64,000 nt of DNA from Minisyncoccota bacterium (lineage in GTDB: Bacteria; Patescibacteriota; Minisyncoccia; Phycocordibacterales; GWA1-40-21). Of the stretch, positions 1-50,856 are shown piece after piece (within the stretch, counting starts at the first letter, position 1; every line of letters starts with the position of its first letter). Made by a program: the position numbers and the translations under genes. The notes beneath the pieces were generated by a model. It was not told where the DNA came from, made no database searches, and was given only the letters and a program-made list of their open reading frames with translations. The DNA is taken from assembly GCA_041656855.1 (NCBI GenBank), contig JBBACS010000003.1, positions 4,902-68,901 on the forward strand. The letters are read 5' to 3'.

Positions 1-1068
1 TTTTGGGTTGATAAGTATCATTAGGAAACCGGCAAAAACGAGAGCTCTTCCAGCTTGATAATTTCTACGAGTAATCTGCGCTAAAATAACAATAAGCGCC
101 ATTACGCCCGCTCTTACTGCAGTAGAAGATGCTCCAGACATAATTATAAATAAAATAATTCCTATAATGCCACCGATAAATCCAAAGTTTTTTGGCAAAA
201 AAGAAAATACTTTCATTATGGCGTCTGCTACAACTGTAATATTGTATCCTGATAATGCGACTATATGTGAAAGCCCTGCTTTGCGAAATATCTCAGTAGT
301 ATTTTCATCCATAGAACTTTTTGTTCCAAGCAATATTCCAGAAAGAAGTGAGGATTCGGGTGAACTTATAGTTTTATTTATATTATTTAGAAATGCATTC
401 TTAATTTTGAATAATATACTTTTTATTATATTTCCATGGCTCCCGGATATAAATTCAGTCTTTGCAAAATCAATTTGATAATAAATATCATCTTTTGAAA
501 GATAAGATACGTAGTCAAATTCACTTGTGGTACTGCCATTACTTGGTGGAAAATTTTCTGGTTTCTCAAGCTTGCCTGTGATTTTTATCAAATCACCATA
601 TTTGAGCTCTGGATACAAATCTGTACTTACTATTCCCTTTCCTAAAATCAAAACATTTGAACTTGATACAATAATATTTTTAAAATCAACCACCAAAACT
701 GCTTGCTTATCTTTTCTAGTTGGCTCATCCGAAATTACTCCCTCAATAATAATTTTGTTTCCAATATTATTTTCCAAATTAATATCTAGAGATTTTGAAT
801 CTTTAAGTTCATATCTGAATATTCCTAAAGAAAATGATAATAGAAAAATTACTAAATATAATATTTCTTTAGCCCCGTCAGATTGGCTTTTTATCTGACT
901 GGGGTTTCTCTTTAAATCAATTATGATCAATTTCCTATAAATTAATAAAATTATTGAAAGAAATATTAAAAATATTGAAAAAGTGACACCAATTTTTATA
1001 AATGAACATAAAAAAATTGCCGATATGAAGCCAGCAATTGAAATTGTTAGAATAGAATTATTTTTCAT
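1..1068 (-). CDS. comEC: ComEC/Rec2 DNA internalization channel, N-terminal part (3' end runs off the window)
   Basis: Not in the ORF track because there is no stop in the window. My translation from the ATG at 1068 reads MKNNSILTISIAGF..., then LSGILLGTKSSMDENTTEIFRKAGLSHIVALSGYNITVV and GASSTAVRAGVMA, which are ComEC competence-domain signatures. The + strand ORFs 167..478, 527..898 and 983..1171 are antisense shadows. Confidence 0.8.
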   Translation of the reverse strand, partial: MKNNSILTISIAGFISAIFLCSFIKIGVTFSIFLIFLSIILLIYRKLIIIDLKRNPSQIKSQSDGAKEILYLVIFLLSFSLGIFRYELKDSKSLDINLENNIGNKIIIEGVISDEPTRKDKQAVLVVDFKNIIVSSSNVLILGKGIVSTDLYPELKYGDLIKITGKLEKPENFPPSNGSTTSEFDYVSYLSKDDIYYQIDFAKTEFISGSHGNIIKSILFKIKNAFLNNINKTISSPESSLLSGILLGTKSSMDENTTEIFRKAGLSHIVALSGYNITVVADAIMKVFSFLPKNFGFIGGIIGIILFIIMSGASSTAVRAGVMALIVILAQITRRNYQAGRALVFAGFLMILINPK

Positions 1069-1311: not shown

Positions 1312-1866
1312 CTATTTCTTTTTTCTTACGCCCCAGAAGATTGAGCCGGCAGGAAAAATTGTTCCCTCATCTATTGGGTTTGCATCCTTGATCTGATGCC
1401 CCTGTAACTGGCAGTTCTTTGAGCAAAGGATTGCAAATTCCCTACCGAATTTGTCCGGCAATTTATCCATAAAGAAAAATGATTCTTCTTTTAGGAAATC
1501 AATTGCCGAAATCACAGTAAAAATGGCGTAAACCAGTGGAATTTTTTCTATCTCAAATTCCACCGCCTCCAACTCTACTGCTTCGAGAGTACAATCCTTT
1601 GTCAACACGAATGAAATGGGCTCGAGTTCATGCTGCATTCTCGGGAGCTCTTCTGTCAGCAACAACTCTTCATTTTTTTCAATGATTTCCTCAGCCCACG
1701 ATCCAACCTGTCCAGCAGAAAAAAATACAACTTTCTTTGCAATTCCTTTTTCCAAACTTCCTCCTTTTTTTGGTCTCTGACCGAATTTTGAAAATAGAAT
1801 TAGTTCTTCATATTTAGAAAGAACATTTACTCTTATAATTAAAGCAACTTGATCAATTTTTGTCAA
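1312..1866 (-). CDS. hypothetical protein (no family recognised)
   Basis: 184-aa ORF. The track start is a TTG, so the true start is uncertain. It looks noticeably more G+C-rich than its neighbours and is bracketed by hairpins and repeats. Confidence 0.5.
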   Translation of the reverse strand: MTKIDQVALIIRVNVLSKYEELILFSKFGQRPKKGGSLEKGIAKKVVFFSAGQVGSWAEEIIEKNEELLLTEELPRMQHELEPISFVLTKDCTLEAVELEAVEFEIEKIPLVYAIFTVISAIDFLKEESFFFMDKLPDKFGREFAILCSKNCQLQGHQIKDANPIDEGTIFPAGSIFWGVRKKK

Positions 1867-1910
1867 TTTAAAAGGTCGTACCCTTTGACACGACCTTTTA
1901 AATTATTTTA

Positions 1911-1974
1911 TTTTCTCTAAAACATTTTTATTAAAAATGTTCGGGCGGACAATCTACCTTAAAGTAGATTGTTT
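1911..1974 (-). repeat. 3'-end module (copy 1) containing the rnhA stop codon
   Basis: On the minus strand: aaacaatctactttaaggTAGattgtccgcccgaacatttttaataaaaatgttttagagaaaa. The same module follows the + strand gene ending at 4836. Confidence 0.7.
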
Positions 1975-2669: not shown

Positions 2670-3071
2670 TTATGCTATATAAACATCACTTCCATCAGTC
2701 TCGGCAATTTCTGCATCAGCTTTTGTTTTATGAATTACTCCATCTTTATGGTGCGGTGGCATATATATTGTATAAAGTTTTAAAGATTTTTTGTTTGAAG
2801 TGTTAATCACATTGTGCATTGAGCCAGCAGGAACAACCACAGCGAAGCCATCAGAGATAAGTGCTTCTTCTCCATCAATTATTACCTTTCCTTCTCCACT
2901 ATCAATTCTGAAAAACTGATCATTATCTGGGTGAACTTCCATTCCTATTTCTTCACTCGGTAATAAACTCATTACAACAACTTGTCCATTCTTTGAAGTA
3001 TAAAGTACTTTTCTAAAATTATTATTGTTTATTGCATCCTGTTCAATATTTGAAACAAATCCTTTTTTCAT
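2670..3071 (-). CDS. cupin domain protein
   Basis: MEVHPDNDQFFRIDSGEGKVIIDGEE...VVVPAGSMHNVINTS is a cupin_2-type beta-barrel motif. The track start 3119 is a TTG inside a repeat, so I use the ATG at 3071 (MKKGFVSNIEQD). Confidence 0.8.
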   Translation of the reverse strand: MKKGFVSNIEQDAINNNNFRKVLYTSKNGQVVVMSLLPSEEIGMEVHPDNDQFFRIDSGEGKVIIDGEEALISDGFAVVVPAGSMHNVINTSNKKSLKLYTIYMPPHHKDGVIHKTKADAEIAETDGSDVYIA

Positions 3072-3116
3072 TGATTTTGCGAAATCACGTCGCGCAACCG
3101 TCCGATAAGCGCGACG
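3069..3116 (-). repeat. 46-nt repeat (copy 2), 5' leader of the cupin gene
   Basis: Reverse complement matches 1185-1230. It ends exactly at the cupin ATG. Confidence 0.65.
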
Positions 3117-6526: not shown

Positions 6527-7159
6527 TTAAAACCGCTTTTTCAGCAAATAGATAAAAACCAACACAAAGACAATTATAATTATAGAGCTCAATAGCAAAT
6601 ATTTACCTATAATGCCATAAAAGATTCCATACCATGGTTCATTAAAGAAATTTGTTTTTATAGAATACAACTCCTGAATATAATGAATAAACTGTTTGGC
6701 TGGAAAACTTTCAGTTTCTCCTATAGCTAGCGTATATTTACCAATGTTATTTGATCGACTAACAATAATATTATATGTACCGGTTGAGACAATATTATTA
6801 AATGATGGTCCTTGCCAATACCAATCACCACCATATTCTTCATACCAACTTTGCCATCCATCAGTTGAAGTAGCCAGCCTAGCAATAATATTTTGTTTAT
6901 CATTCACTATCAATACAATAAAATCTTTATTAGAATCCTGAATCTTTGGGGATAAAATTTGTATATATAATTTTAATGATGAAGTTGCATATATTGTGTA
7001 TACAGCTTCTGCTCCAAAAAGCTCACCGTAATATGCTTTTGATATATTCGGGTCTGTGTCTATAACTTTCGTTTGTCTATTAATATAATTAGGTTGATGA
7101 GCAAATATAATAATTGGTATGACAAAAAAAACTAATACAAAAATTAAATATTTTTTCAT
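6527..7159 (-). CDS. hypothetical exported protein with C-terminal membrane anchor
   Basis: 210-aa ORF with an N-terminal signal-like helix and a C-terminal TM (LLLSSIIIIVFVLVFIYLL). Confidence 0.6.
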   Translation of the reverse strand: MKKYLIFVLVFFVIPIIIFAHQPNYINRQTKVIDTDPNISKAYYGELFGAEAVYTIYATSSLKLYIQILSPKIQDSNKDFIVLIVNDKQNIIARLATSTDGWQSWYEEYGGDWYWQGPSFNNIVSTGTYNIIVSRSNNIGKYTLAIGETESFPAKQFIHYIQELYSIKTNFFNEPWYGIFYGIIGKYLLLSSIIIIVFVLVFIYLLKKRF

Positions 7160-7226
7160 ACATAAATTATACTTGGGTAAAACAAGAAAATCAAAGAAAA
7201 AAGGATCCGAGATAAAAACTTATACT

Positions 7227-7443
7227 TGGGTGGCTATCGGGGAGTTTCAGCTTACAGCCGCAGTACACCAAGAATCAGAGGGGGTTGGTCACAGCTTTTT
7301 TCTTCGCCGTCGCTCAGAAAAAGTTGCGAAGCTCTGCACTTGATTTTCTAATTCACTTCGTTCATAACAAAATCTACGCCCGACTCAGCTGATTTTTCTA
7401 CTGAAAAATCAGCTTCCATCTTTCAACCCTCGATAGCCATACC
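7227..7443 (-). ncRNA. tRNA-cognate minihelix-mimic element, His-type copy B (type II + TGTAA modules)
   Basis: On the minus strand, the 5' part tggctatcgagggttgaa is antisense to the tRNA-His 3' end (ttcaacccccgatagcca). The 3' end ctccccgatagccaccca is a verbatim sense copy. It also contains the 14-nt-loop hairpin and the GTAC/TGTAA hairpin. Confidence 0.65.
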
Positions 7444-7452
7444 AAAAATATG

Positions 7453-7577
7453 TATCGGGGAGTTTTTCCTTACAGGAACTGTACACCTTTCGTATCGTAC
7501 TCACTACGTTTCGTGCGATATACTCAAGGTCTTCAACCCCCGAACGTAAGTGCCTACTAGCACTTACTTAGCCGCCC
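7453..7577 (-). ncRNA. tRNA-cognate minihelix-mimic element, His-type copy A (type I)
   Basis: On the minus strand: gggcggcta, hairpin gtaagtgc..gcacttac, tcgggggttgaa (antisense of the tRNA-His T-arm), accttGAgta..tacGAaaggt, gtacag-ttccTGTAAggaa-aaa, then ctccccgata. Confidence 0.65.
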
Positions 7578-7903
7578 AAATGAAAAAGACGGCTTAACGC
7601 CGCTTTTTCATTTGGGTGCATAGGGGGTCTAGAACAATCTACTACCAACAACCACAAAGGTATTTGAGCTATTTTCAGCGTATCAAAAATAGGCGTGTCG
7701 GTCACTATATAAAAAGATCAGAAGTGTTCATTAGTACACTACCCGTCTTATGCTTCCTTTTTTTCAAAAACAGAAGCATTCCATCAATCACCGTAAGAAT
7801 GGTTCAGAGAATTTTGAGTGTTTTTATAAATAAGTTCCAGAATAAATCATGGTCAAACGACGGTCTAGAACTAAAAACACAAATGGCTATAGATCTTTCT
7901 CAA

Positions 7904-8371
7904 CTAGGGATTTATAGCCTGTCTAATTGCGGTCTCAAAATCTCCGGGAACATCCGTTCCTATGCGATAGATTCTTCCGTTTTTCATAATTATTTCAACC
8001 GCATCAAAACCAGAAACATTATATATCCACATCTTGGGCCATAGCCACAACCTTATTCCCCAGCCATAATACCAATGATTCTTCACTTGCTTTACTGATA
8101 CTATTTCACTAAGTAAGAATTTTTTCTTGAAAATTCCATAGCCAAATTTTATCTGAAGACAATTTTTATCAATTGACGTTGTTAGTGTGGTAAACGATGC
8201 AAGAGTAAACGATATTAAAACCATTATGGTGGTAATGAGAAAATTTGTACCAGAATAGTATGAGGGTGTTTCAGTCCTGGCTATAATTTGAGCCCATGCA
8301 AATAACGCCAGCACAATCAGTGTGATAATAATCATCAGATATCCAATTTGAGTGTGTTTATATGAGGTCAT
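7904..8371 (-). CDS. hypothetical membrane protein
   Basis: 155-aa ORF with two N-terminal TM helices followed by a small soluble domain. Confidence 0.6.
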   Translation of the reverse strand: MTSYKHTQIGYLMIIITLIVLALFAWAQIIARTETPSYYSGTNFLITTIMVLISFTLASFTTLTTSIDKNCLQIKFGYGIFKKKFLLSEIVSVKQVKNHWYYGWGIRLWLWPKMWIYNVSGFDAVEIIMKNGRIYRIGTDVPGDFETAIRQAINP

Positions 8372-8452
8372 AATTTATTTGAGAATTTTCTTATTTAATT
8401 GTTCGAACTATTCCAACAACAACAAGACTGGCGTCAGATATTTTTTTGCCTA

Positions 8453-9229
8453 TTATTCGGTAGCAAGCCGAATATGGCCGCATTGGCCATTCAAACTTTC
8501 AACCACCTTCATTACATCATCAATCTGAGGTTCATAAGCGGTAATTTTATCGCCATTTTTAAGTTTAAGAGTTACCAGTTTACTGTGAGTTTGAAATACG
8601 CTTTCCACCTCACAATTATTAATAGCTGTTAAAACTATATTCCAGTTACTATTGGCTTCATCAGTAAAGTTTCGACCGTCGGGAGTAGCACATTGTGACG
8701 GGTTGGATTTCATTATAGAAAAGCCAGCAGTAACACAATCATCAAAATTTCTGATCGTGGCCAATAGTTCGTTGCATCTTTCATGGCTCACCATATCACT
8801 TTTAGGTAGACATTCTTTTAATTTGTCGGTTAATGTAGTGTCTTTCGTGACTAGATTTTCAGCAATACTCCACAAAGAATAATACCGGCTATAGTATCTA
8901 TGGACAGCAACAGCGCTCGTTTTGTCATCTGATTTAAAAAAATAACCTGACCCAATTTGTTCTGTAAAATCATAACCCTTTTCTTTCATGAAAGATTTGA
9001 TTATCTCTAGTTTATCACTTTTTGTAATATACTTATTTTCTCCTATATCTAATTTTACAATGTCTTTATTACCAAAATTTAATTGGGCTATTCCTTTTAT
9101 TTGCGGCCAAGGATTACCTTCCTGAAAGATAGCTGGGAAGTAAAAAAGTATAAAAACACCTAGCAGTAAAATAATAATGGAGGTAATAAGTAGAACATTT
9201 TTATTTTTTAATGAGTGTTCAAAAATCAT
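8453..9229 (-). CDS. hypothetical membrane-anchored/secreted protein
   Basis: 258-aa ORF with a single N-terminal TM (VLLITSIIILLLGVFILFYF). Several Cys residues in the C-terminal half. Confidence 0.6.
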   Translation of the reverse strand: MIFEHSLKNKNVLLITSIIILLLGVFILFYFPAIFQEGNPWPQIKGIAQLNFGNKDIVKLDIGENKYITKSDKLEIIKSFMKEKGYDFTEQIGSGYFFKSDDKTSAVAVHRYYSRYYSLWSIAENLVTKDTTLTDKLKECLPKSDMVSHERCNELLATIRNFDDCVTAGFSIMKSNPSQCATPDGRNFTDEANSNWNIVLTAINNCEVESVFQTHSKLVTLKLKNGDKITAYEPQIDDVMKVVESLNGQCGHIRLATE

Positions 9230-9420
9230 AGTGGATTATTATTTTTCTTCTTGCTCCTGATCACAACGACTATAATGACAATAATGAGTATGAGACCTAT
9301 CCCTTGCAATCCTGGACTATCATCAAATTCACCGAATACAATAAAAAATGTTCCCAACAATATTGCTAGAATTTTCGGGGTCCAGTATAAGATTTTATTT
9401 TTTATATCAGAATAGTTCAT
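9226..9420 (-). CDS. small membrane protein
   Basis: 64-aa ORF with two TM helices. Its stop overlaps the next ATG (ATGA, 9226-9229), suggesting translational coupling. Confidence 0.55.
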   Translation of the reverse strand: MNYSDIKNKILYWTPKILAILLGTFFIVFGEFDDSPGLQGIGLILIIVIIVVVIRSKKKNNNPL

Positions 9421-9508
9421 TTGTTTGTATTATATCTTAAAAATTCACTTTATTAAAAGACTGATTTTTATAATAAAACAAAAAAGCGACCAAAAGTCGT
9501 TATTTTTG

Positions 9509-9656
9509 TTTACAATTCTTTCGGCATTAGAATCACAGCTTTGTAGCTCTCCCTCGATTCTACGCGATAAAAATGTCCTAGCGGAATAAGTGAGTCTGGG
9601 ACCAAAATTTTATAAAACTAAAGCGAACCGGTCGCAAAACCAGTCGCTCACTCTTG
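9509..9656 (-). ncRNA. rearranged fragment of the mimic-element family directly downstream of tRNA-His
   Basis: On the minus strand it shares tgagcgac...ctttag, ggtcccagac, agcggaataagtga (inverted), gaatcgagggagag and cacagct with type II copies. No closing tRNA-like stem is present. Confidence 0.4.
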
Positions 9657-9728
9657 GGTGGCTATCGGGGGTTGAACCCGAACAAAGAGTTCCACAAACT
9701 CTTGTGCTACCGCTACACCATAGCCACC
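9657..9728 (-). tRNA. tRNA-His (GUG)
   Basis: Cloverleaf read by eye: G-1 plus gtggcta / tagccac acceptor, anticodon arm agagt-ttGTGga-actct, T-arm tcggg-ttcaacc-cccga, discriminator C. No complete encoded CCA. Confidence 0.9.
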
Positions 9729-9778
9729 ATTAGCGAACTCGCTATTTATAACAGATTTTTACAATAAAATCTAGGATT

Positions 9779-10316: not shown

Positions 10317-10988
10317 TTATATCAAACCCGCAATATATTGTGCGCCTCCAAGCCAAAATATCATTGCCAAAACTACGTAAAAACCAAAATGTATCATATA
10401 GCTATAGATAAAGCCCTTCTTGGATTTAGTAATACAATAAGAAAATATAAGACCCGCAAAAAATGAAACACCAAAAAGTATCTTTCCCATAGATGAATCA
10501 ACAAAAAGTATCGGAAAATGTATAAACATTGCATATAAACCAAACAAAATCATATCTATCTTTTTTGAAACATTATTATTAAAAAGATAATAAATGCTTA
10601 TCATAAAAAATGTCTGCTGAAACATTATTTCAAAAGCTTTTGTTACTAAAAATTTATCATCCAGCTGAAGAATCGGTGGCAAACTGTTTTTTATTGCATA
10701 AAGTGAGTTTCCTTCTATTAAAAGACTTACAAAATAATAAATTGAGGTAACAGCTACAGAAAAAATTACCATAATCAATAAGTCTTTGGCAGAAAAATTA
10801 TCTACATAGTTTCCAATCTCTTTTTTAAATATAGAAGTCAAAGCAACTATTATAAGCAAAAAGTAAACCGACGTTAGAATATACCTATTTTCATAATCTA
10901 TTCCTTGTGGTTGTAAATAAAGAATAAAAACAGCCCATACAGAGAACCAAACAAATGATAAACCAAATATTTTAAAAAATGTTTTCAT
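10317..10988 (-). CDS. polytopic membrane protein (weak CPBP/Abi-like resemblance only)
   Basis: 223 aa with about 7 hydrophobic helices. The IHF/MIHF histidines are reminiscent of CPBP proteases, but the motifs are incomplete. Confidence 0.55.
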   Translation of the reverse strand: MKTFFKIFGLSFVWFSVWAVFILYLQPQGIDYENRYILTSVYFLLIIVALTSIFKKEIGNYVDNFSAKDLLIMVIFSVAVTSIYYFVSLLIEGNSLYAIKNSLPPILQLDDKFLVTKAFEIMFQQTFFMISIYYLFNNNVSKKIDMILFGLYAMFIHFPILFVDSSMGKILFGVSFFAGLIFSYCITKSKKGFIYSYMIHFGFYVVLAMIFWLGGAQYIAGLI

Positions 10989-10996
10989 AATTTTTG

Positions 10997-11080
10997 TGCT
11001 CGGGAGAAGACTCGAACTTCCAAGCCCTTGCGGGCGCTACCACCTCAAGGTAGTGCGTCTACCAATTTCGCCACCCGAGC
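10997..11080 (-). tRNA. tRNA-Leu (GAG)
   Basis: gctcggg acceptor, anticodon arm ctacc-ttGAGgt-ggtag, long variable arm, T-arm ggaag-ttcgagt-cttct(c). No mimic element follows it. Confidence 0.85.
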
Positions 11081-11123
11081 ATCTGAAAAGCAATAATATA
11101 CCAAACCTATGCTTTTTCCAAGT

Positions 11124-11150
11124 AAAAAACCCGCTCTCGCGGGGTTTTTT
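11124..11150 (-). terminator. intrinsic terminator after rplS
   Basis: On the minus strand: aaaaaaccccgcgagagcgggtttttt. Confidence 0.75.
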
Positions 11151-11158
11151 ACTTATGA

Positions 11159-11575
11159 TTATTTTGCCTCTTTTTTATCAGCCTTCTTAGTATCTGTATT
11201 GCTTTCTTTTCTTGCTCCTAGAAGTTCGCTCTTTAAATGTCTCTTTAGCTCTTTGGTAGCTTTTTCTCTGATGTAATAAAGTTTTGCTCTTCTTACTTGT
11301 GCTCTCTTCAAAATTTCTATTGAATCAATAACAGGTGAATATAATGGAAAAATTCTTTCAACACCTACTTCATCTATAACCTTTCTTACTGTAAAAGTGC
11401 CGCCATTTTCTTTTCCATGTTTAATAGCCAAAATCATTCCTTCAAAAGCCTGAAGTCTTATCTTATCTCCCTCCTTAATTTTCTGCCAAACACGAACGGT
11501 ATCACCAGATCTCATATCAATCTTCTTTCTTGCATCCATATCTATTGGTGAAATTTTAATATTCTTTAATTCCAT
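11159..11575 (-). CDS. rplS: 50S ribosomal protein L19
   Basis: GDTVRVWQKIKEGDKIRLQAFEGMILAIKHGKENGGTFTVRKV..GVERIFPLYSPVIDSIEILK, with a basic C-terminal tail. Confidence 0.95.
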   Translation of the reverse strand: MELKNIKISPIDMDARKKIDMRSGDTVRVWQKIKEGDKIRLQAFEGMILAIKHGKENGGTFTVRKVIDEVGVERIFPLYSPVIDSIEILKRAQVRRAKLYYIREKATKELKRHLKSELLGARKESNTDTKKADKKEAK

Positions 11576-11622
11576 AAGTGGTTAGTAATTTAGCACATTA
11601 AATTAATTATTACAACATTAAA

Positions 11623-12351
11623 CTATCTCTTTATCTTTTTAATAGCTTCTTCAAAATCTTCTGGATATGGGGCTGTAATTTTCAATAATTTTTTTGACGG
11701 CAACGTTATTTCTAATTCCCTTGCGTGAAGAGCCGTTCTTTTGAAACCTAATTGTTGTTTTTTCTTTAAATAAAACTCTGTGGCATAAAGCTTATCTTGG
11801 ACCAAAGGATGATTTATAGAGGTAAGATGAACTCTTATCTGATGGGTTCTCCCTGTTTTTGGTATAGCTTCAATAAAAGTAATATCATCTTTTTTACCCA
11901 AAACTTTAAAATATGTTACCGCTTCGCGCATCTCTCCACGTGCGCCTCTTGTTGCAGTCCATTTGCGAAAATCTGTTGAGCTTCTTCCTATCGGCCTATC
12001 TATCATTCCTCTTTCATCTTTCAAATCTCCATAAACAAAAGCTTGATAAACTTTGTGAACTTTCCTGTTTTTAAATTGTCCTTTTAAAAATTCAAAAGCT
12101 TCTTTATTTTTTGCAATTATAAGAGCTCCTGAAGTGTCCCTGTCTATCCTGTGAACGATTCCCGGTCTCAATATCTTTGTTCCGTCATCTAAAAGTATTG
12201 GTTCTCCAATATTTTTTATCTTTGGATATTTTTTCAAAATCCAATCAACCAAAGTTTTTACTTTAATTTTTCCATCAGGATGAACGACAAGCCCAGCTGG
12301 CTTGTTTATGACGACAACATCTTTATCTTCGTAGAGAATGGGGATTTTCAT
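11623..12351 (-). CDS. RluA-family pseudouridine synthase
   Basis: DKDVVVINKPAGLVVHP, HRIDRDTSGALIIAK and TGRTHQIRVHL. Confidence 0.9.
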   Translation of the reverse strand: MKIPILYEDKDVVVINKPAGLVVHPDGKIKVKTLVDWILKKYPKIKNIGEPILLDDGTKILRPGIVHRIDRDTSGALIIAKNKEAFEFLKGQFKNRKVHKVYQAFVYGDLKDERGMIDRPIGRSSTDFRKWTATRGARGEMREAVTYFKVLGKKDDITFIEAIPKTGRTHQIRVHLTSINHPLVQDKLYATEFYLKKKQQLGFKRTALHARELEITLPSKKLLKITAPYPEDFEEAIKKIKR

Positions 12352-12408
12352 AAATTTATTTTAATAATTTAGCATAGATTTGAGGGAAGTGCTATTTGGA
12401 TAAATGCA

Positions 12409-12523
12409 TGGGATTCTGTCACAGCTCTTTTCTTCGCCGTCGCTCAGAAAAAGTTGCGACCCCGACTCAGCTGATTTTTCTACTGAAAAATCAGCTTCCG
12501 TCTTTCGAATCCCTTAGCACCCA
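12409..12523 (-). ncRNA. tRNA-cognate minihelix-mimic element, Val-type (type II, 3' end truncated)
   Basis: The minus strand begins gggtgctaagggattcgaa, which is antisense to the tRNA-Val 3' end. Then an 11-bp hairpin agctgattttt..aaaaatcagct and the hairpin ctttttc-TGAGCGACGGCGAA-gaaaag. It ends gaatccca. Confidence 0.6.
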
Positions 12524-12577
12524 ATAAAAAATGGCCAAATGCTCCATGTATTCGCATTTGACCTATTTTTTAATCAG

Positions 12578-12651
12578 TGGGCGCTAAGGGATTCGAACCC
12601 CTGACCCCCTCAGTGTAAATGAGGTGCTCTAACCAACTGAGCTAAGCGCCC
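12578..12651 (-). tRNA. tRNA-Val (UAC)
   Basis: gggcgct acceptor, anticodon arm cctca-ttTACac-tgagg, T-arm agggg-ttcgaat-ccctt. Confidence 0.9.
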
Positions 12652-12707
12652 TAATAACTAACGACATTTATATTACATGAAAAATAAGAAAAAACAAATA
12701 AATATCA

Positions 12708-13733
12708 CTAAACACTCTTGAATTTGTTCAAATCTAAATAAACCAATTTTGCTCTACCTTCAGATTCAATAATAGGAAATATTATCTTTTTACCAACAAC
12801 TTTTTTGTCATGAATAATCATTCCCAAATCAACTTTCATACTTTGATCTATTTTAATCCCTAGAGTTTTTAATAAGTTTAACAAATTTTCTCTAACTCGA
12901 GGTTTAGTTAGCCAAAGTGATTCGGTGAAAGCCAACTCTTTAATCATTCCAATGAGCACTGCTCTTCCATGACTAATCTTATATTTTAATTCAATAGCAT
13001 GTCCAAACGTGTGCCCAACATTAAGTGCCTGCCTGATATTATTATCTTTAAAATCATTTTTAACAAAATATTCTTTCACTTTAATAGACTTATTTATAAT
13101 TATTGGCAAATCATGACTTTTGACTAAAGTTCTAATAGAATATTTTTTAAGAAAAGATAATATTGAAGTATCTTTTATCAAACCAGCTTTAATTATTTCA
13201 CCGAGCCCATCAATGACTTGTTCATTAGATAATGATTTCATAAAGCGAGTATCAATAATTGTAGACACAGGCAAATAAAAACTACCAATTAGATTTTTAT
13301 ATTCTAAAAAATCAACAGCAGTTTTTCCACCATGAGAACTATCTACTTGTGCCAATAATGTTGTTGGCACTTGAATATATTTTATTCCACGGAGATATAT
13401 AGACGAAGCAAAGCCAACAATGTCCCCAACTGTGCCACCTCCAAAAGCAATAACAATACTTTTTCTATCGAGATTAAGATTTAAAAATTTCTCGAGTAAT
13501 TTTTCTAATTCATTCCAGCTTTTTGCTTTTTCACCATCAGGAATTATAATAATGTTTGATTTTTTGATACCAATTTCTTTAATAGCCCAATTTAATTTTT
13601 TAGATAATTTTAAAGAGGTAACGAGACAAACTTTTGATGGTTTTTGAACTTTTAATATTTTGTGGATTGATTTTAAAGAGTGTGTAAGGGACATGGAAAT
13701 ATTATAACATGACAAACATAATACAAATTTCAT
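12708..13733 (-). CDS. aroB: 3-dehydroquinate synthase-like sugar phosphate cyclase
   Basis: IAFGGGTVGDIVGFASSIYLRGIKYIQVPTTLLAQVDSSHGGKTAVD and NVGHTFGHAIE. The track start 13766 is a TTG; ATG candidates are 13733 and 13694. Confidence 0.8.
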   Translation of the reverse strand: MKFVLCLSCYNISMSLTHSLKSIHKILKVQKPSKVCLVTSLKLSKKLNWAIKEIGIKKSNIIIIPDGEKAKSWNELEKLLEKFLNLNLDRKSIVIAFGGGTVGDIVGFASSIYLRGIKYIQVPTTLLAQVDSSHGGKTAVDFLEYKNLIGSFYLPVSTIIDTRFMKSLSNEQVIDGLGEIIKAGLIKDTSILSFLKKYSIRTLVKSHDLPIIINKSIKVKEYFVKNDFKDNNIRQALNVGHTFGHAIELKYKISHGRAVLIGMIKELAFTESLWLTKPRVRENLLNLLKTLGIKIDQSMKVDLGMIIHDKKVVGKKIIFPIIESEGRAKLVYLDLNKFKSV

Positions 13734-13768
13734 ACGCTTTTCCTTTGGGGCCCAACCCAAACTCAAAG

Positions 13769-13901
13769 CCCCCTTGGCAGGAAGTTCGACCGTTACACGG
13801 TCAGTACCCCCATTGGAGATTTTGTTTCGCTACACTCACAAAATCTGCTCAATGGGGCTTCGATTCCTGACGTGAGCAAAGACTTTTGCTCACTCCAAGG
13901 C
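13769..13901 (-). ncRNA. tRNA-cognate minihelix-mimic element, Arg(UCU)-type (type I)
   Basis: On the minus strand: gccttgg, hairpin gtgagcaaa..tttgctcac, tcaggaatcgaa (antisense of the T-arm), ccccattg..caatgggg helix, gtactg-gaccgTGTAAcggtc-gaa, then cttcctgccaaggg. Confidence 0.65.
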
Positions 13902-13945: not shown

Positions 13946-14017
13946 TGCCCTTGGCAGGAATCGAACCTACATCAAAGCCTTAGAAGAGCTCTGTTCTATC
14001 CATTGAACTACAAGGGC
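13946..14017 (-). tRNA. tRNA-Arg (UCU)
   Basis: gcccttg acceptor, D-arm gttc-aatggata-gaac, anticodon loop ctTCTaa, T-arm gtagg-ttcgatt-cctgc. Confidence 0.85.
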
Positions 14018-14055
14018 ATGGATATTTTCTGTTAAGCCCAAACAATATAACAGTT

Positions 14056-14382
14056 TTATATAGAAGGGTCAACCAAATTCTGTATTTTTAAAGTTGTTAT
14101 CCTTGCTTTTTGAGCTTCAAAATTATCGAGAATTTTTTGTAATTCAGTAGTTTTCAAATCTTCAATAACAAGTTCTTCTCTCTTTACACTCACATACATA
14201 TCTCCACTCACTATTTGTTGATACATATAAGCATCAAATCCTATGGAAGCTATTATTAAAATAACAAATAAAATTATTAAAATATTCCAATCTCTTTTAG
14301 GATTTACTATTTTACCAGACAAAGAAATTTCTTCTAAAAAGGATTTATTTGTTTTTATTTTTGTTTTAGAAATATTATTCAT
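14056..14382 (-). CDS. small single-pass membrane protein in the pilus cluster
   Basis: 108-aa ORF, 4 nt after pilO, with one TM (WNILIILFVILIIASIGF). Confidence 0.55.
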   Translation of the reverse strand: MNNISKTKIKTNKSFLEEISLSGKIVNPKRDWNILIILFVILIIASIGFDAYMYQQIVSGDMYVSVKREELVIEDLKTTELQKILDNFEAQKARITTLKIQNLVDPSI

Positions 14383-24393: not shown

Positions 24394-24465
24394 TTGTTAT
24401 TAAATTAACTAATAAATATATTATAAATAATATCACAAAAAATTAAAAAACTTACTTCTTTTATA

Positions 24466-24655
24466 AAAGGGGCGAGATTCGGCTATTACTTAGCCAGGTA
24501 CTTTTCCGCTTCATATTATTAAGAGAGGGCGAGAATTTCGAAACTTACAGTTTCAGTACACCTTTTCTATTTTATATTCGTGATTACACTCTATAAAATT
24601 ATCAAAGGTCTTCGAATCTCGCACGAAAGCTCTCCCAGAGCTTTCTCCTCTGCGC
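24466..24655 (-). ncRNA. tRNA-cognate minihelix-mimic element, Ser-type (type I, with a second partial 3' module)
   Basis: On the minus strand: gcagagg, hairpin gaaagctc-tggg-gagctttc, gcgagattcgaa (antisense of the T-arm), accttt-GA..GA-aaaggt, gtactg-gaaacTGTAAgtttc-gaaa, then ttctcgccctctc. A second gtacctggctaagtaa..gaatctcgcccc module follows. ORFs 24580..25263 and 24591..24773 are spurious. Confidence 0.65.
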
Positions 24656-42892: not shown

Positions 42893-42963
42893 GCGGGCAT
42901 AGTTTAGTGGTAAAACAACAGTTTTCCAAACTGTGGTTGGGTGTTCGATTCACCCTGCCCGCA
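42893..42963 (+). tRNA. tRNA-Gly (UCC)
   Basis: gcgggca acceptor, D-arm gttt-agtggta-aaac, anticodon arm acagt-ttTCCaa-actgt, T-arm gggtg-ttcgatt-caccc. No mimic element follows it. Confidence 0.9.
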
Positions 42964-42966
42964 CAA

Positions 42967-44157: not shown

Positions 44158-44290
44158 CGGAGTGAGTAAGCAAACCACTTTGCTTACGTTCGGGATTCGA
44201 AAAGGTTCTCCCATATTTTTGAGCAATTAATATTGCGAGAAAATGGGAAACCTGTACTGCTCCTGTAAGGAGAGAAATTCCCGGCACTCG
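44158..44290 (+). ncRNA. tRNA-cognate minihelix-mimic element, Pro-type (type I)
   Basis: cggagtg, hairpin gtaagcaaa-ccac-tttgcttac, ttcgggattcgaa, aggttctcccat..atgggaaacct helix, ttttt-GA-gcaat..attgc-GA-gaaaa, gtactg-ctccTGTAAggag-agaaa, then ttcccggcactc. ORF 44008..44226 is spurious. Confidence 0.7.
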
Positions 44291-44295
44291 TTCGT

Positions 44296-44329
44296 TTCCA
44301 TAATTTGGGGTGGGACCCAAATTATGGAA
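44296..44329. terminator. bidirectional hairpin terminator (mimic element / cca)
   Basis: ttccataatttggg-gtggga-cccaaattatggaa. Confidence 0.7.
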
Positions 44330-44341
44330 TCTTTCTCTCTA

Positions 44342-45939: not shown

Positions 45940-46011
45940 GTGCCTGTGGTGAAATGGATATCACAACAGTCTTCGGAACTGTTGTTGCGGGTTCGATTCC
46001 TGCCAGGCACA
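45940..46011 (+). tRNA. tRNA-Arg (UCG)
   Basis: gtgcctg acceptor, D-arm gtga-aatggata-tcac, anticodon arm acagt-ctTCGga-actgt, T-arm gcggg-ttcgatt-cctgc. No mimic element follows it. Confidence 0.85.
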
Positions 46012-46052
46012 CATTGGAAGCAATTAAAAATATGGCTTAATTTTAGTTTTTC

Positions 46053-46622: not shown

Positions 46623-46841
46623 GCGAGCGAGTAAGCAAATCTACTTTGCTTACGTCCGGGAATCGAAAACCTTGAGTATATTTTTGAACTTTTACTAAAG
46701 TGAAAAAATACGAAAGGTGTACCGTCCATGTAATGGAAGATAAGCGAAGCGGTCCCGGCGCATTTACCGTAGTAGATTATATTCGGGATAGGGCCTGAAT
46801 ATAATTTTGTAGAAAGTGTACTCACGGTTCCCGTCGCTAGC
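46623..46841 (+). ncRNA. tRNA-cognate minihelix-mimic element, Gly(GCC)-type (type I, with a second partial 3' module)
   Basis: gcgagcg, hairpin gtaagcaaa-tctac-tttgcttac, tccgggaatcgaa, acctt-GA-gta..tac-GA-aaggt, gtaccg-tccaTGTAAtgga, then ggtcccggcgc. A second gtgtactcacggttcccgtcgc module follows. ORFs 46486..46698 and 46505..46843 are spurious. Confidence 0.7.
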
Positions 46842-49902: not shown

Positions 49903-50856
49903 TTAGTTCTTGTTTTTGTTATGAAAATTCTTGTGGATATCTCGTAAATGTTTATCCGTAACATGAGTATATATCTGGGTTGTAGCTATACTTGAATGGC
50001 CTAACATGGCTTGAACACTACGTATATCAGCACCATTTGAAAGCAAATCCGTTGCAAAACAGTGACGAATAACGTGTGGTGTAACTTTTTTGGAAATTCC
50101 TGACATTATTGCATATCTTTTTACTATTCTTTCTATTGACCTGCGAGTGAGTCCTTCATCTTTTGTTTTGTCTTCTTTACCTTTAAGTAAACTTTTTGGA
50201 ATACCCTCATCACTAACTTTTACAAAAAGTGCATCCGACATATCTTTTCTTAAAGCCAAATATGTTTTTATTGCATCCTTAGCTTCCTGCGAAAGAAAAA
50301 CCACGCGAACTTTTCCCCCTTTTCCTCGAATGGAAAATTCATCTTGTTTGATATCCAAATCATTTGTTAGAGAGCAAAGTTCAGAAACACGAAGACCGGT
50401 AGAAAACAAGAGTTCCAAAATAGCGTGTCCACGAGCCACTTTTTCAGGATTTTCCTCCAGATCTGGGGCTTTTAAAAGCCTGTTCAATTCATCTTGTGAA
50501 ATGACATCAATTGATCTTTCACCAACTTTTGCAAGTTCTATTTCATCTGCATGCAGGGAAGTAATGCCACGCTTTGTAAGAAATTTTAAAAAACTTCGCA
50601 GTGCAATCAAATAATAATTTTGTGTTTTCTTTTTCATCGTGTCTTGAGTCGCACGATTATTGCCAGCGACTTGACGATTGAGCCAAATGCGAAAATCCCT
50701 GACTTTTTCATAAGTAATATCTTTTGGGTCAGTAATTTTTGTTTGCTCCAAAAAAACAGTTAAATAGTGATTATAGTTTTCTACAGTACGAAGAGCACGA
50801 CCTCTTTCTATTTCCATATATTCAAGAAATTGTCTTTTTAGATCTTGCAAATTCAT
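49903..50856 (-). CDS. xerC: tyrosine recombinase XerC/XerD family
   Basis: ERGRALRTVENY, GLRVSELCSL, VTPHVIRHCFATDLLSNGADIRSVQAMLGHSSIATTQIYTHV (R..HxxR..Y). Confidence 0.9.
   Translation of the reverse strand: MNLQDLKRQFLEYMEIERGRALRTVENYNHYLTVFLEQTKITDPKDITYEKVRDFRIWLNRQVAGNNRATQDTMKKKTQNYYLIALRSFLKFLTKRGITSLHADEIELAKVGERSIDVISQDELNRLLKAPDLEENPEKVARGHAILELLFSTGLRVSELCSLTNDLDIKQDEFSIRGKGGKVRVVFLSQEAKDAIKTYLALRKDMSDALFVKVSDEGIPKSLLKGKEDKTKDEGLTRRSIERIVKRYAIMSGISKKVTPHVIRHCFATDLLSNGADIRSVQAMLGHSSIATTQIYTHVTDKHLRDIHKNFHNKNKN

Follow-up and report, generated by a model that had tools for sequence, protein, structure and literature searches.

A probable insertion between tRNA-His and its cognate structured RNA elements in a Patescibacteria genome

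Introduction

In a genome of the Patescibacteria (Paceibacterota), a tRNA-His gene is separated by 2.1 kb from two RNA elements whose arms match that particular tRNA, and three small genes occupy the space between them. The window analysed here is a 64,000-nucleotide (nt) stretch of contig JBBACS010000003.1, and coordinates refer to it unless a related locus (L001, L004 and so on) is named. Seven other tRNAs in the window have an element of the same family abutting them on the same strand, which raises the question of why the His elements lie apart from theirs. A preliminary description of this DNA had offered two answers: an islet with the three genes was inserted between the tRNA and its elements, or the elements moved or were duplicated away from the tRNA. 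Our comparison with related loci indicates that the islet was probably inserted and that the elements did not move. The elements themselves belong to a family of structured RNAs for which neither an Rfam model nor a paper was found, and which is undescribed as far as searched.

Gene order at tRNA-His in related genomes

A search with the cobalamin adenosyltransferase gene adjoining tRNA-His was used to collect 56 related loci. The nearest of these by adenosyltransferase were L001-L003 (81-82% amino-acid identity). The closest by neighbouring genes were L004 and L007, in which ribosomal protein L19 is 94% and 90% identical and a 223-amino-acid (aa) neighbour protein is 86% and 80% identical, respectively. 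The order adenosyltransferase to tRNA-His is kept in most of the 56 loci, and the stretch between tRNA-His and the aldolase gene differs in every relative.

Elements are found directly behind tRNA-His in L001 (three tandem units, the copies identical), in L007 (one), and in L004, where an ortholog of the nearer of the two displaced elements (element 2) lies 38 nt behind the tRNA. None of the 56 loci has a homolog of the three islet genes within 10 kb of tRNA-His (tblastn). The DNA from 9512 to 7910 is 80% identical at the nucleotide level to L072 and 75% identical to L074, where the same gene pair sits at unrelated loci with no tRNA near; the block as a whole was found at other loci in L072-L075, with no tRNA nearby in L072-L074. 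Because L001, L004 and L007 keep their elements directly behind tRNA-His and the block sits at unrelated loci elsewhere, the first of the two answers is to be preferred: the islet was probably inserted between tRNA-His and its elements. Nothing at the locus requires the second.

The two junctions of the islet

The tRNA-His gene is intact, lies on the minus strand as first described, and has its G-1 encoded at 9728. The insertion has its proximal junction in the final bases of the gene, ...CACCCAA (9656-9662). The distal junction was missed in the preliminary description. Judging from the alignments, it appears to be marked by a decayed copy of the tRNA-His 3' end (the stub, 7612-7635) together with the native trailer hairpin. 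The stub holds a 7-nt perfect repeat of the tRNA-His end, CACCCAA (7612-7618). Positions 7578-7618 are identical (41/41) to the trailer hairpin directly after tRNA-His in L001, where a hairpin matching the same stretch also follows each element unit. Taken together, the identical trailer, the stub and the element 2 ortholog of L004 point to an ancestral order of tRNA, hairpin and element 2. A candidate pseudo-tRNA upstream of the stub (TTTGTGG anticodon-loop match, 7640-7760) was rejected, since 37-47% of shuffles attain its local alignment score of 14.

The sense copies at 7227-7242 and 7453-7462 had previously been read as attachment (att) sites around an insertion. The repeats themselves are real, with an 18-nt perfect direct repeat (7225-7242 and 9653-9670) and ctccccgata at 7453-7462. 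They are instead intrinsic 3' arms, with which every member of the family ends, and the copy at 7225-7242 is an element arm and not an islet boundary. It is thus the tRNA and the elements that bracket the islet, not the two elements as had been proposed.

The inserted DNA

The three open reading frames (ORFs) listed in the preliminary description are all present on the minus strand, and an independent assembly, L057, likewise annotates them as genes, with products of 64, 258 and 155 aa. All three products were judged by eye to be small membrane proteins; none has a significant Pfam or NCBIfam match, and the 258-aa protein belongs to a widespread Patescibacteria family (345 matches). The block is foreign-like in nature. 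Synteny and composition had been suggested as checks, and both came out on the side of an insertion: the genes are absent near tRNA-His and found elsewhere at 75-80% nucleotide identity, as described above, and their GC content at third codon positions (GC3) ranks 51, 44 and 50 among the 53 window genes. The earlier remark that the interval lacks an integrase also stands, the three ORFs having no recombinase domain. The sole tyrosine recombinase in the window is Xer-like and lies at 49903-50856, 40 kb from the islet.

The flanks of the block (9513-9655 and 7636-7903) were found by BLAST in same-species contigs only. Three such contigs (L057-L059) carry the tRNA-proximal flank at 100% identity and L057 spans the whole islet, which confirms that the arrangement is real and not an assembly artefact. 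The stretch adjoining the tRNA (9509-9656) had been taken for a rearranged fragment of the element family. This reading was dropped: unfiltered searches with the profiles of the three core types, taken to E<=100, detected nothing in 9509-9655, the fold of this stretch does not stand out (z -1.1), and the sole shared similarity is 24 nt at 75% identity. The coordinates of all features are collected in Table 1.

Table 1. Features of the tRNA-His locus in the window, and positions of the cassette repeat in relatives
Feature	Coordinates	Strand	Basis
tRNA-His(GUG), intact	9656..9727	-	ARAGORN; Rfam tRNA 59.3 bits
Left flank of inserted DNA, with terminator-like hairpin 9626-9645 for the tRNA	9513..9655	-	Terminator scan; fold z -1.1
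Three-gene block with own terminator (9487-9499) and promoter-like site (9429-9456)	7910..9512	-	Homology to blocks elsewhere
ORF, 64 aa, two transmembrane (TM) helices	9226-9420	-	
ORF, 258 aa, N-terminal TM helix	8453-9229	-	
ORF, 155 aa, two TM helices and weak bPH-like match	7904-8371	-	
Right flank of inserted DNA, non-coding	7636..7903	-	No ORF; no Rfam match; BLAST only L057
Stub, putative decayed copy of tRNA-His 3' end, GTTCTAGACCCCCTATGCACCCAA vs tRNA GTTCAACCCCCGATAGCCACCCAA	7612..7635	-	Alignment
Putative ancestral tRNA-His trailer, terminator hairpin between A-tract and U-tract	7575..7616	-	BLAST; terminator scan; inverted repeat
His element 2, type A core	7453..7577	-	Profile A, E 1.3e-26; fold z -2.73; alignment; covariation
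His element 1, composite	7227..7443	-	Profile B, E 1.3e-18, and profile A 3' module; BLAST; fold z -4.66
15-nt direct repeat, 93%, ACCCAAGTATAA core, overlapping the end of the element 1 sense arm	7164-7178 and 7217-7231	-	Repeat search
~115-nt repeat	L001 11933-12057, 12263-12377; L006 13869-13994, 15191-15297; L007 14512-14628		
~115-nt repeat	L030 5094-5212; L031 15409-15532, 16577-16703, 17570-17697; L186 ~700-800		

Layout of the element family

Behind tRNA genes the elements share a common layout, in which a terminator hairpin with A-tract and U-tract is followed by a 5' arm, a conserved hairpin, a second arm segment ending in GAA, a core and a 3' arm. Profile hidden Markov models (HMMs) were built for three core types, A, B and C. 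They detected nine elements in the window and no orphans, and all but the His pair start 20-45 nt after their tRNA. Among the 11 tRNAs of the window, elements are found behind His, Val, Arg(UCU), Ser, Arg(GCG), Lys, Pro and Gly(GCC); Leu(GAG) (10996-11080), Gly(UCC) (42893-42964) and Arg(UCG) (45940-46012) are free of them. The next gene begins 8 nt after tRNA-Leu(GAG) in the window. At the orthologous site, L002 and L006 have an element insert of ~130-240 nt, and in L002 a promoter-like stretch precedes the same gene.

The 3' arm repeats, in sense orientation, the tRNA sequence that runs from T-loop position ~57 across the 3' strand of the acceptor and the discriminator, and takes in one to four bases of the trailer. 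The two arms close a core made up of two hairpins. The 5' arm is the reverse complement of the same ~20-nt tRNA stretch, interrupted by the conserved hairpin. It complements T-loop bases 57-60 as well and follows each individual T-loop, with GGTTGAA for the unusual TTCAACC of tRNA-His and AATCGAA or ATTCGAA for the others. At G.U positions of the tRNA stems, the 5' arm is Watson-Crick complementary to the 3' strand in 39 of 47 cases and shows the base of the tRNA 5' strand in two of 47. This indicates that the arms are derived from, or kept complementary to, the tRNA 3' strand only, and it makes the label 'mimic' used in the preliminary description misleading.

Every element best matches its neighbour tRNA, or ties where two tRNAs share a T arm. 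Across the window and the 56 loci, a 12-nt cognate antisense segment occurs within 200 nt downstream of 29 of 136 tRNAs (21%) and upstream of none of the 136, with an average of 1.2 for non-cognate controls. The cognate relation between element and tRNA is therefore far above chance and non-random. A metagenome scan with the type B core pattern returned ~50 plausible elements, 32 of them within 220 nt of a same-strand tRNA; those near tRNAs span at least 16 amino-acid identities.

The family is a genuine structured RNA on the tRNA strand. More stable folding on this strand than on its complement was found for 26 of 29 elements, with a mean gap of 5.5 kcal/mol. The type A consensus, built from 11 elements, has five helices with compensatory changes in 24 of 26 pairs. 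Its paired cells amount to 91%, compared to 64% in shuffles and 30-44% with slid partners, and none of 500 shuffles reached the observed values. As there is no space for a promoter between terminator and element, transcription would be by read-through from the tRNA.

With Rfam 15, at the gathering threshold and at E<=10, tRNAs alone were matched, and the family had no match in the E<=10 scan over 7150-9760. No description of such elements was found in the literature covered, most subscription journals lying outside this coverage. Several candidate identities were discarded. Two exact-pattern scans of IMG/VR for a viral origin gave chance matches in coding DNA only, exact patterns being of limited sensitivity. 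Hammerhead, k-turn and C/D-box motifs, compared by eye, do not fit the cores. An origin by integrase crossover in the T-loop was rejected, there being no copy of the T-stem 5' strand ahead of the 3' arm.

Additional modules accompany some members. Behind tRNA-Ser, the complete element is followed by another type A 3' module, a partial one, GTACCTGGCTAAGTAATAGCCGAATCTCGCCCC (24465-24505, minus strand). Hairpins TTTGGGGTGGGACCCAAA, GGGTTGGGCCCC or GGGATAGGGCC were seen just after elements at ~44289-44330 (+), ~13740-13773 (-) and ~46770-46800 (+), and in L006 at ~1830-1960. These hairpins may represent an additional conserved module, or else a terminator that lacks a U-run.

The two His elements

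Element 2 starts with the antisense acceptor arm GGGCGGCTA and continues with the conserved hairpin, the antisense T arm TCGGGGGTTGAA, helix P3, GUAC, helix P4 with its UGUAA loop and the sense arm CTCCCCGATA. The hairpin, P3 and P4 are visible in its predicted fold. The acceptor part of the 3' arm CTCCCCGATA has been lost, along with the hairpin expected after it.

Element 1 has the antisense arm GGTATGGCTATCGAGGGTTGAA, a type B core (7277-7446), a type A 3' module (7235-7270) and the full sense arm CCCCGATAGCCACCCAAG, and folds with a long closing helix. Its type B core is 97-98% identical to the core behind tRNA-Val (BLAST). Element 1 is itself fused, joining a type B element to the 3' module of type A.

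Both elements are cognate to tRNA-His, as was first proposed. Over the 9 nt antisense to T-loop and T-stem they match it in 9/9 and 8/9 positions, compared to at most 7/9 for the other ten tRNAs. Decay of the His arms after displacement was considered as a reading and dropped, the arm matches falling within the range of the seven tRNA-adjacent elements.

The 15-nt direct repeat at the end of the element 1 sense arm (Table 1) may have been left there as a scar by another event. A 210-aa ORF (6527-7159) follows the repeat and is absent from all relatives, with no homolog within 10 kb of tRNA-His in the 56 loci; a second insertion may have used the arm of element 1.

Turnover of cores among tRNA loci

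Comparison of core sequences shows movement of cores, or their homogenisation, among loci. The type C core behind tRNA-Lys matches the tRNA-His core of L001 over 56 of 56 nt, and more generally the type C cores at Lys and Arg in the window match the His elements of L001 and L007 (BLAST). At the orthologous tRNA-His site, three type C cores are present in L001, type A in L004, type C in L007, none in L002 and L003, and A plus B/A in the window.

Some family members lie in other settings. A nested insertion is present in L028. The stop of a protein gene in L148 is closely followed by a type B core (~1750-1941, minus strand of the locus) and then by a 41-nt direct copy of the 3' coding end of that gene; the family thus occurs at a non-tRNA site too, with upstream sequence duplicated. 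At ~9950-10100 of L160 (minus strand of the locus), a tRNA has a type B core on its upstream side, and the arms of this core resemble the tRNA 5' end (CCAGGGTAG vs CCGGGGTAG).

Parallel cases behind tRNA-His

The geometry of the window came about a second time, independently, in L006. Here a different allele of tRNA-His is followed by glycosyltransferase and Na/Pi transporter genes, GGCACCCA, a hairpin and an element cognate to that allele; metagenome contig L186 holds the distal half of an arrangement of this type. L006 has tandem His elements (14015-14137 and 14168-14297) cognate to two tRNA-His alleles. The first matches the present tRNA (GTGCCTA.../TAGGCAC) and the second matches the window-type tRNA (GTGGCTA.../TAGCCAC), which is gone from the locus. 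This second element is a fossil, orthologous to element 2, and shows that the tRNA-His allele was replaced. Two HNH endonuclease ORFs (10601-11092 and 11085-11588) lie between the adenosyltransferase gene and the replaced tRNA-His. Of a tRNA in L084 (~2800-3100, minus strand of the locus), no more than the T arm and the 3' strand of the acceptor (GCGGGTTCGATTCCCGCCATCTCCACA) stands before a hairpin and a cognate element, and ARAGORN detected no full tRNA; it looks like another displaced tRNA 3' fragment with its element.

Behind tRNA-His in L001, L006, L007, L030 and L031 there are cassettes of one or two genes, bounded by a conserved ~115-nt repeat (Table 1). The repeat ends in GGCACCCA, similar to the tRNA-His 3' end; next comes a left arm, also conserved and promoter-like, GCGTTATTTTT...TTTTTAGTTCTAACC...TATG. 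A conserved 33-aa ORF (LGAVVEDVRTIFERRNDATIYIPTFYPT...) runs on the opposite strand. An attC-like folded site was considered for this repeat and rejected, as it has no fold as single-stranded DNA (ssDNA; z 0 to +2.4). No recombinase was identified for these cassettes. In L031, a 337-aa reverse transcriptase (RVT_1, E 7.5e-25; 12187-13200) is encoded 1.5 kb downstream of tRNA-His, ahead of three repeat-bounded cassettes.

The first cassette begins right after the 3' arm of the last element in L001 and L007, and after the tRNA itself in L006. The tRNA-His 3' end and its element-arm copies are thus recurrent recombination junctions, and where the junction is at the tRNA's own end the elements are displaced. 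The window does not contain the ~115-nt repeat (nhmmer, E<=10); its islet is therefore not one of those cassettes and would be of another kind, or older.

Proposed history of the locus and alternatives

We propose that the ancestor had tRNA-His, the terminator hairpin with its A and U tracts and the element or elements in one contiguous unit. Approximately 2.0 kb of DNA (roughly 7636-9655) would then have recombined in at the tRNA end ...CACCCAA, leaving the tRNA intact. It would have brought its own terminator, the 1.6-kb three-gene membrane-protein block and ~0.27 kb of non-coding DNA, and the decayed stub, the old terminator and both elements would have been pushed 2.1 kb downstream. A recombinase encoded elsewhere and acting in trans may have used the tRNA-His 3' end as its attachment site, with the 3'-arm copies usable too. 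Site-specific recombination at CACCCAA by such an enzyme is what we infer from the recurrence of the junction; as no integrase was found, we suggest it tentatively, and illegitimate or homology-assisted recombination could instead have been the route.

Several observations weigh against an insertion. The perfect junction repeat is just 7 nt long, the longer stub is degenerate, with two indels and one or two substitutions, and the 3' arm of an upstream element, since lost, would be an alternative source for it. Both flanks are without other matches and no attP-like donor is known, the GC3 shift is only modest, and no recombinase was found in or beside the islet, as judged from the three ORFs and from Pfam and NCBIfam domains. 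No islet-free genome of the same species was found, the exact-protein look-ups leading to the same arrangement only, and a metagenome scan for an empty or pre-insertion site with a 24-nt hairpin pattern gave no match. The direction of the event, insertion here versus loss in the relatives, rests on parsimony among few genomes at ~80% amino-acid identity.

The opposite direction would make the islet ancestral and its absence from the relatives the result of deletion between two direct repeats, the stub and the tRNA 3' end. Flanking direct repeats would permit such precise loss, and the stretch from tRNA-His to the aldolase gene is variable in every relative. However, at least three independent losses (L001, L004 and L007) would be required, each remaking a perfect tRNA-hairpin junction, and the block is present at unrelated tRNA-free loci in other Patescibacteria and is atypical in GC3. 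We therefore regard an ancestral islet as improbable.

If the stub is a 3' arm, the islet may have replaced or entered the first element (E0) of an array consisting of tRNA, E0, element 2 and element 1. Each unit in the arrays of L001 does end in a 3' arm and then the same hairpin, cassettes do land at 3' arms in L001 and L007, and the stub is preceded by TAGACC, faintly like the GTGACC ahead of type B 3' arms. Yet no 5' part of an element (hairpin, antisense arm) is left beside the tRNA, and the alignment of the stub extends into the T-loop of the tRNA (GTTC...), a part that 3' arms leave out. Little probability can be given to this scenario.

Least probable is that mobile elements transposed or were duplicated to a site 2.1 kb downstream of tRNA-His with the three genes being native: cores clearly spread between loci (element 1 and tRNA-Val have type B cores of 97-100% identity, and type C cores are common to Lys/Arg and the His elements of L001 and L007), core types differ at the same tRNA-His site among close relatives and the L148 core is at a non-tRNA site, but transposition would have to carry both the native trailer (41/41 to L001) and the stub that the pair keeps, the element 2 ortholog is at the tRNA in L004, the seven other window elements abut their tRNA, and the three genes are missing from the locus in all relatives and located elsewhere in others. 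An insertion of the islet is the reading that we follow below.

Possible nature and significance of the elements

Our working guess is that the element RNA is a selfish or regulatory RNA that reaches tRNA 3' ends via its arms. Rapid turnover, cores that are identical between different tRNAs, tandem arrays, the nested insertion in L028 and the 41-nt repeat in L148 fit a selfish module spreading among tRNA 3' ends. A partner RNA encoded by the cell would also fit, with the antisense arm pairing either to the tRNA 3' half or to its own sense arm and so acting as a switch or decoy. Locus-specific arms interleaved with a conserved scaffold are hard to obtain from simple insertion and point to templated rewriting or selection. 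One may speculate, with considerable doubt, that the family is an undescribed class of Patescibacteria RNA with arms written from the 3' end of the adjoining tRNA, a retargetable module that spreads between tRNA loci and whose sense arm serves as a decoy attachment site for cassettes. If so, the landing site of cassettes would be the tRNA in the window, L006 and L186 and the decoy arm in L001 and L007, and the His locus would be a natural experiment in which elements persist once cut from their tRNA.

The His locus shows that the unit includes the tRNA terminator hairpin and that the elements stay structurally intact apart from the tRNA. The family stands behind many tRNA genes in a large, poorly understood bacterial phylum, with antisense and sense copies around interchangeable cores. 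Should spread involve a rewriting of the arms, an RNA element would here be addressed to its target in a new way; should selection maintain them, the cell would have a dedicated RNA partner for many individual tRNAs.

Comparison with known systems

Similar to tRNA-like RNAs, such as the tRNA-like domain (TLD) of tmRNA, the bacterial Y RNA YrlA, viral tRNA-like structures (TLS) and mascRNA, the ends of the elements pair as a helix of acceptor and T-stem 3' strand, and one hairpin stands where the D and anticodon arms would be. In contrast to them, the T-loop is replaced by the core, the 5' arm complements the tRNA 3' strand (39:2), the helix runs past the discriminator into the trailer and leaves no free NCCA, and each tRNA gene has its own cognate version. 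The elements have no T-loop and no free 3' end, and no match to the Rfam models of tRNA, tmRNA, YrlA or viral TLS.

A stretch of ~21 nt complementary to a specific tRNA 3' end recalls the primer-binding sites of retroviruses and long terminal repeat (LTR) elements, the pairing of exon- and intron-binding sites (EBS-IBS) in group II introns and the bridge RNA of IS110. As with class IIC introns, which land behind terminators, the elements lie just downstream of the complemented sequence, behind a terminator hairpin, and occur in tandem copies. They differ from all of these in that the complementarity covers the genomic trailer and not CCA, and in that a sense copy pairs with their own antisense arm. 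No reverse transcriptase, intron domains or recombinase were found near the elements in Rfam and domain scans. With a length of 110-220 nt and no Rfam match at E<=10 over 7150-9760, they are not group II (IIC) introns or known ribozymes. Neither are they miniature inverted-repeat transposable elements (MITEs): their arms differ per locus and match the local tRNA, and the conserved parts are internal and interleaved with the arms.

The cassettes of the relatives are reminiscent of integron arrays, with one or two genes each, ~115-nt repeats and fixed core GGCACCCA junctions. Unlike integron sites, the repeat lacks an ssDNA fold and carries the 33-aa ORF; no integron integrase was seen, and the window is without the repeat.

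Genomic islands of tyrosine integrases lie at tRNA 3' ends and are flanked by attL and attR repeats of the tRNA 3' segment. Williams is said to have described, in 2002, the sublocations of integrative elements in tRNA genes. The islet resembles these islands in having foreign-like genes, atypical in GC3 and absent in relatives, directly behind an intact tRNA, right after ...CACCCAA, and its far boundary appears to be marked by a copy of the tRNA 3' segment. The locus also varies among relatives, and the same tRNA has been struck repeatedly (window, L006, L186, L001, L007). It differs in lacking an integrase at its end, or an excisionase, in being just 2 kb long, in having no attP donor found, and in a boundary repeat of which 7 nt are perfect inside the decayed 24-nt copy. 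An islet at a tRNA 3' end is ordinary in itself. Structured RNA elements separated from their tRNA are not, and unlike the known islands the insertion here would have split an existing tRNA-element unit.

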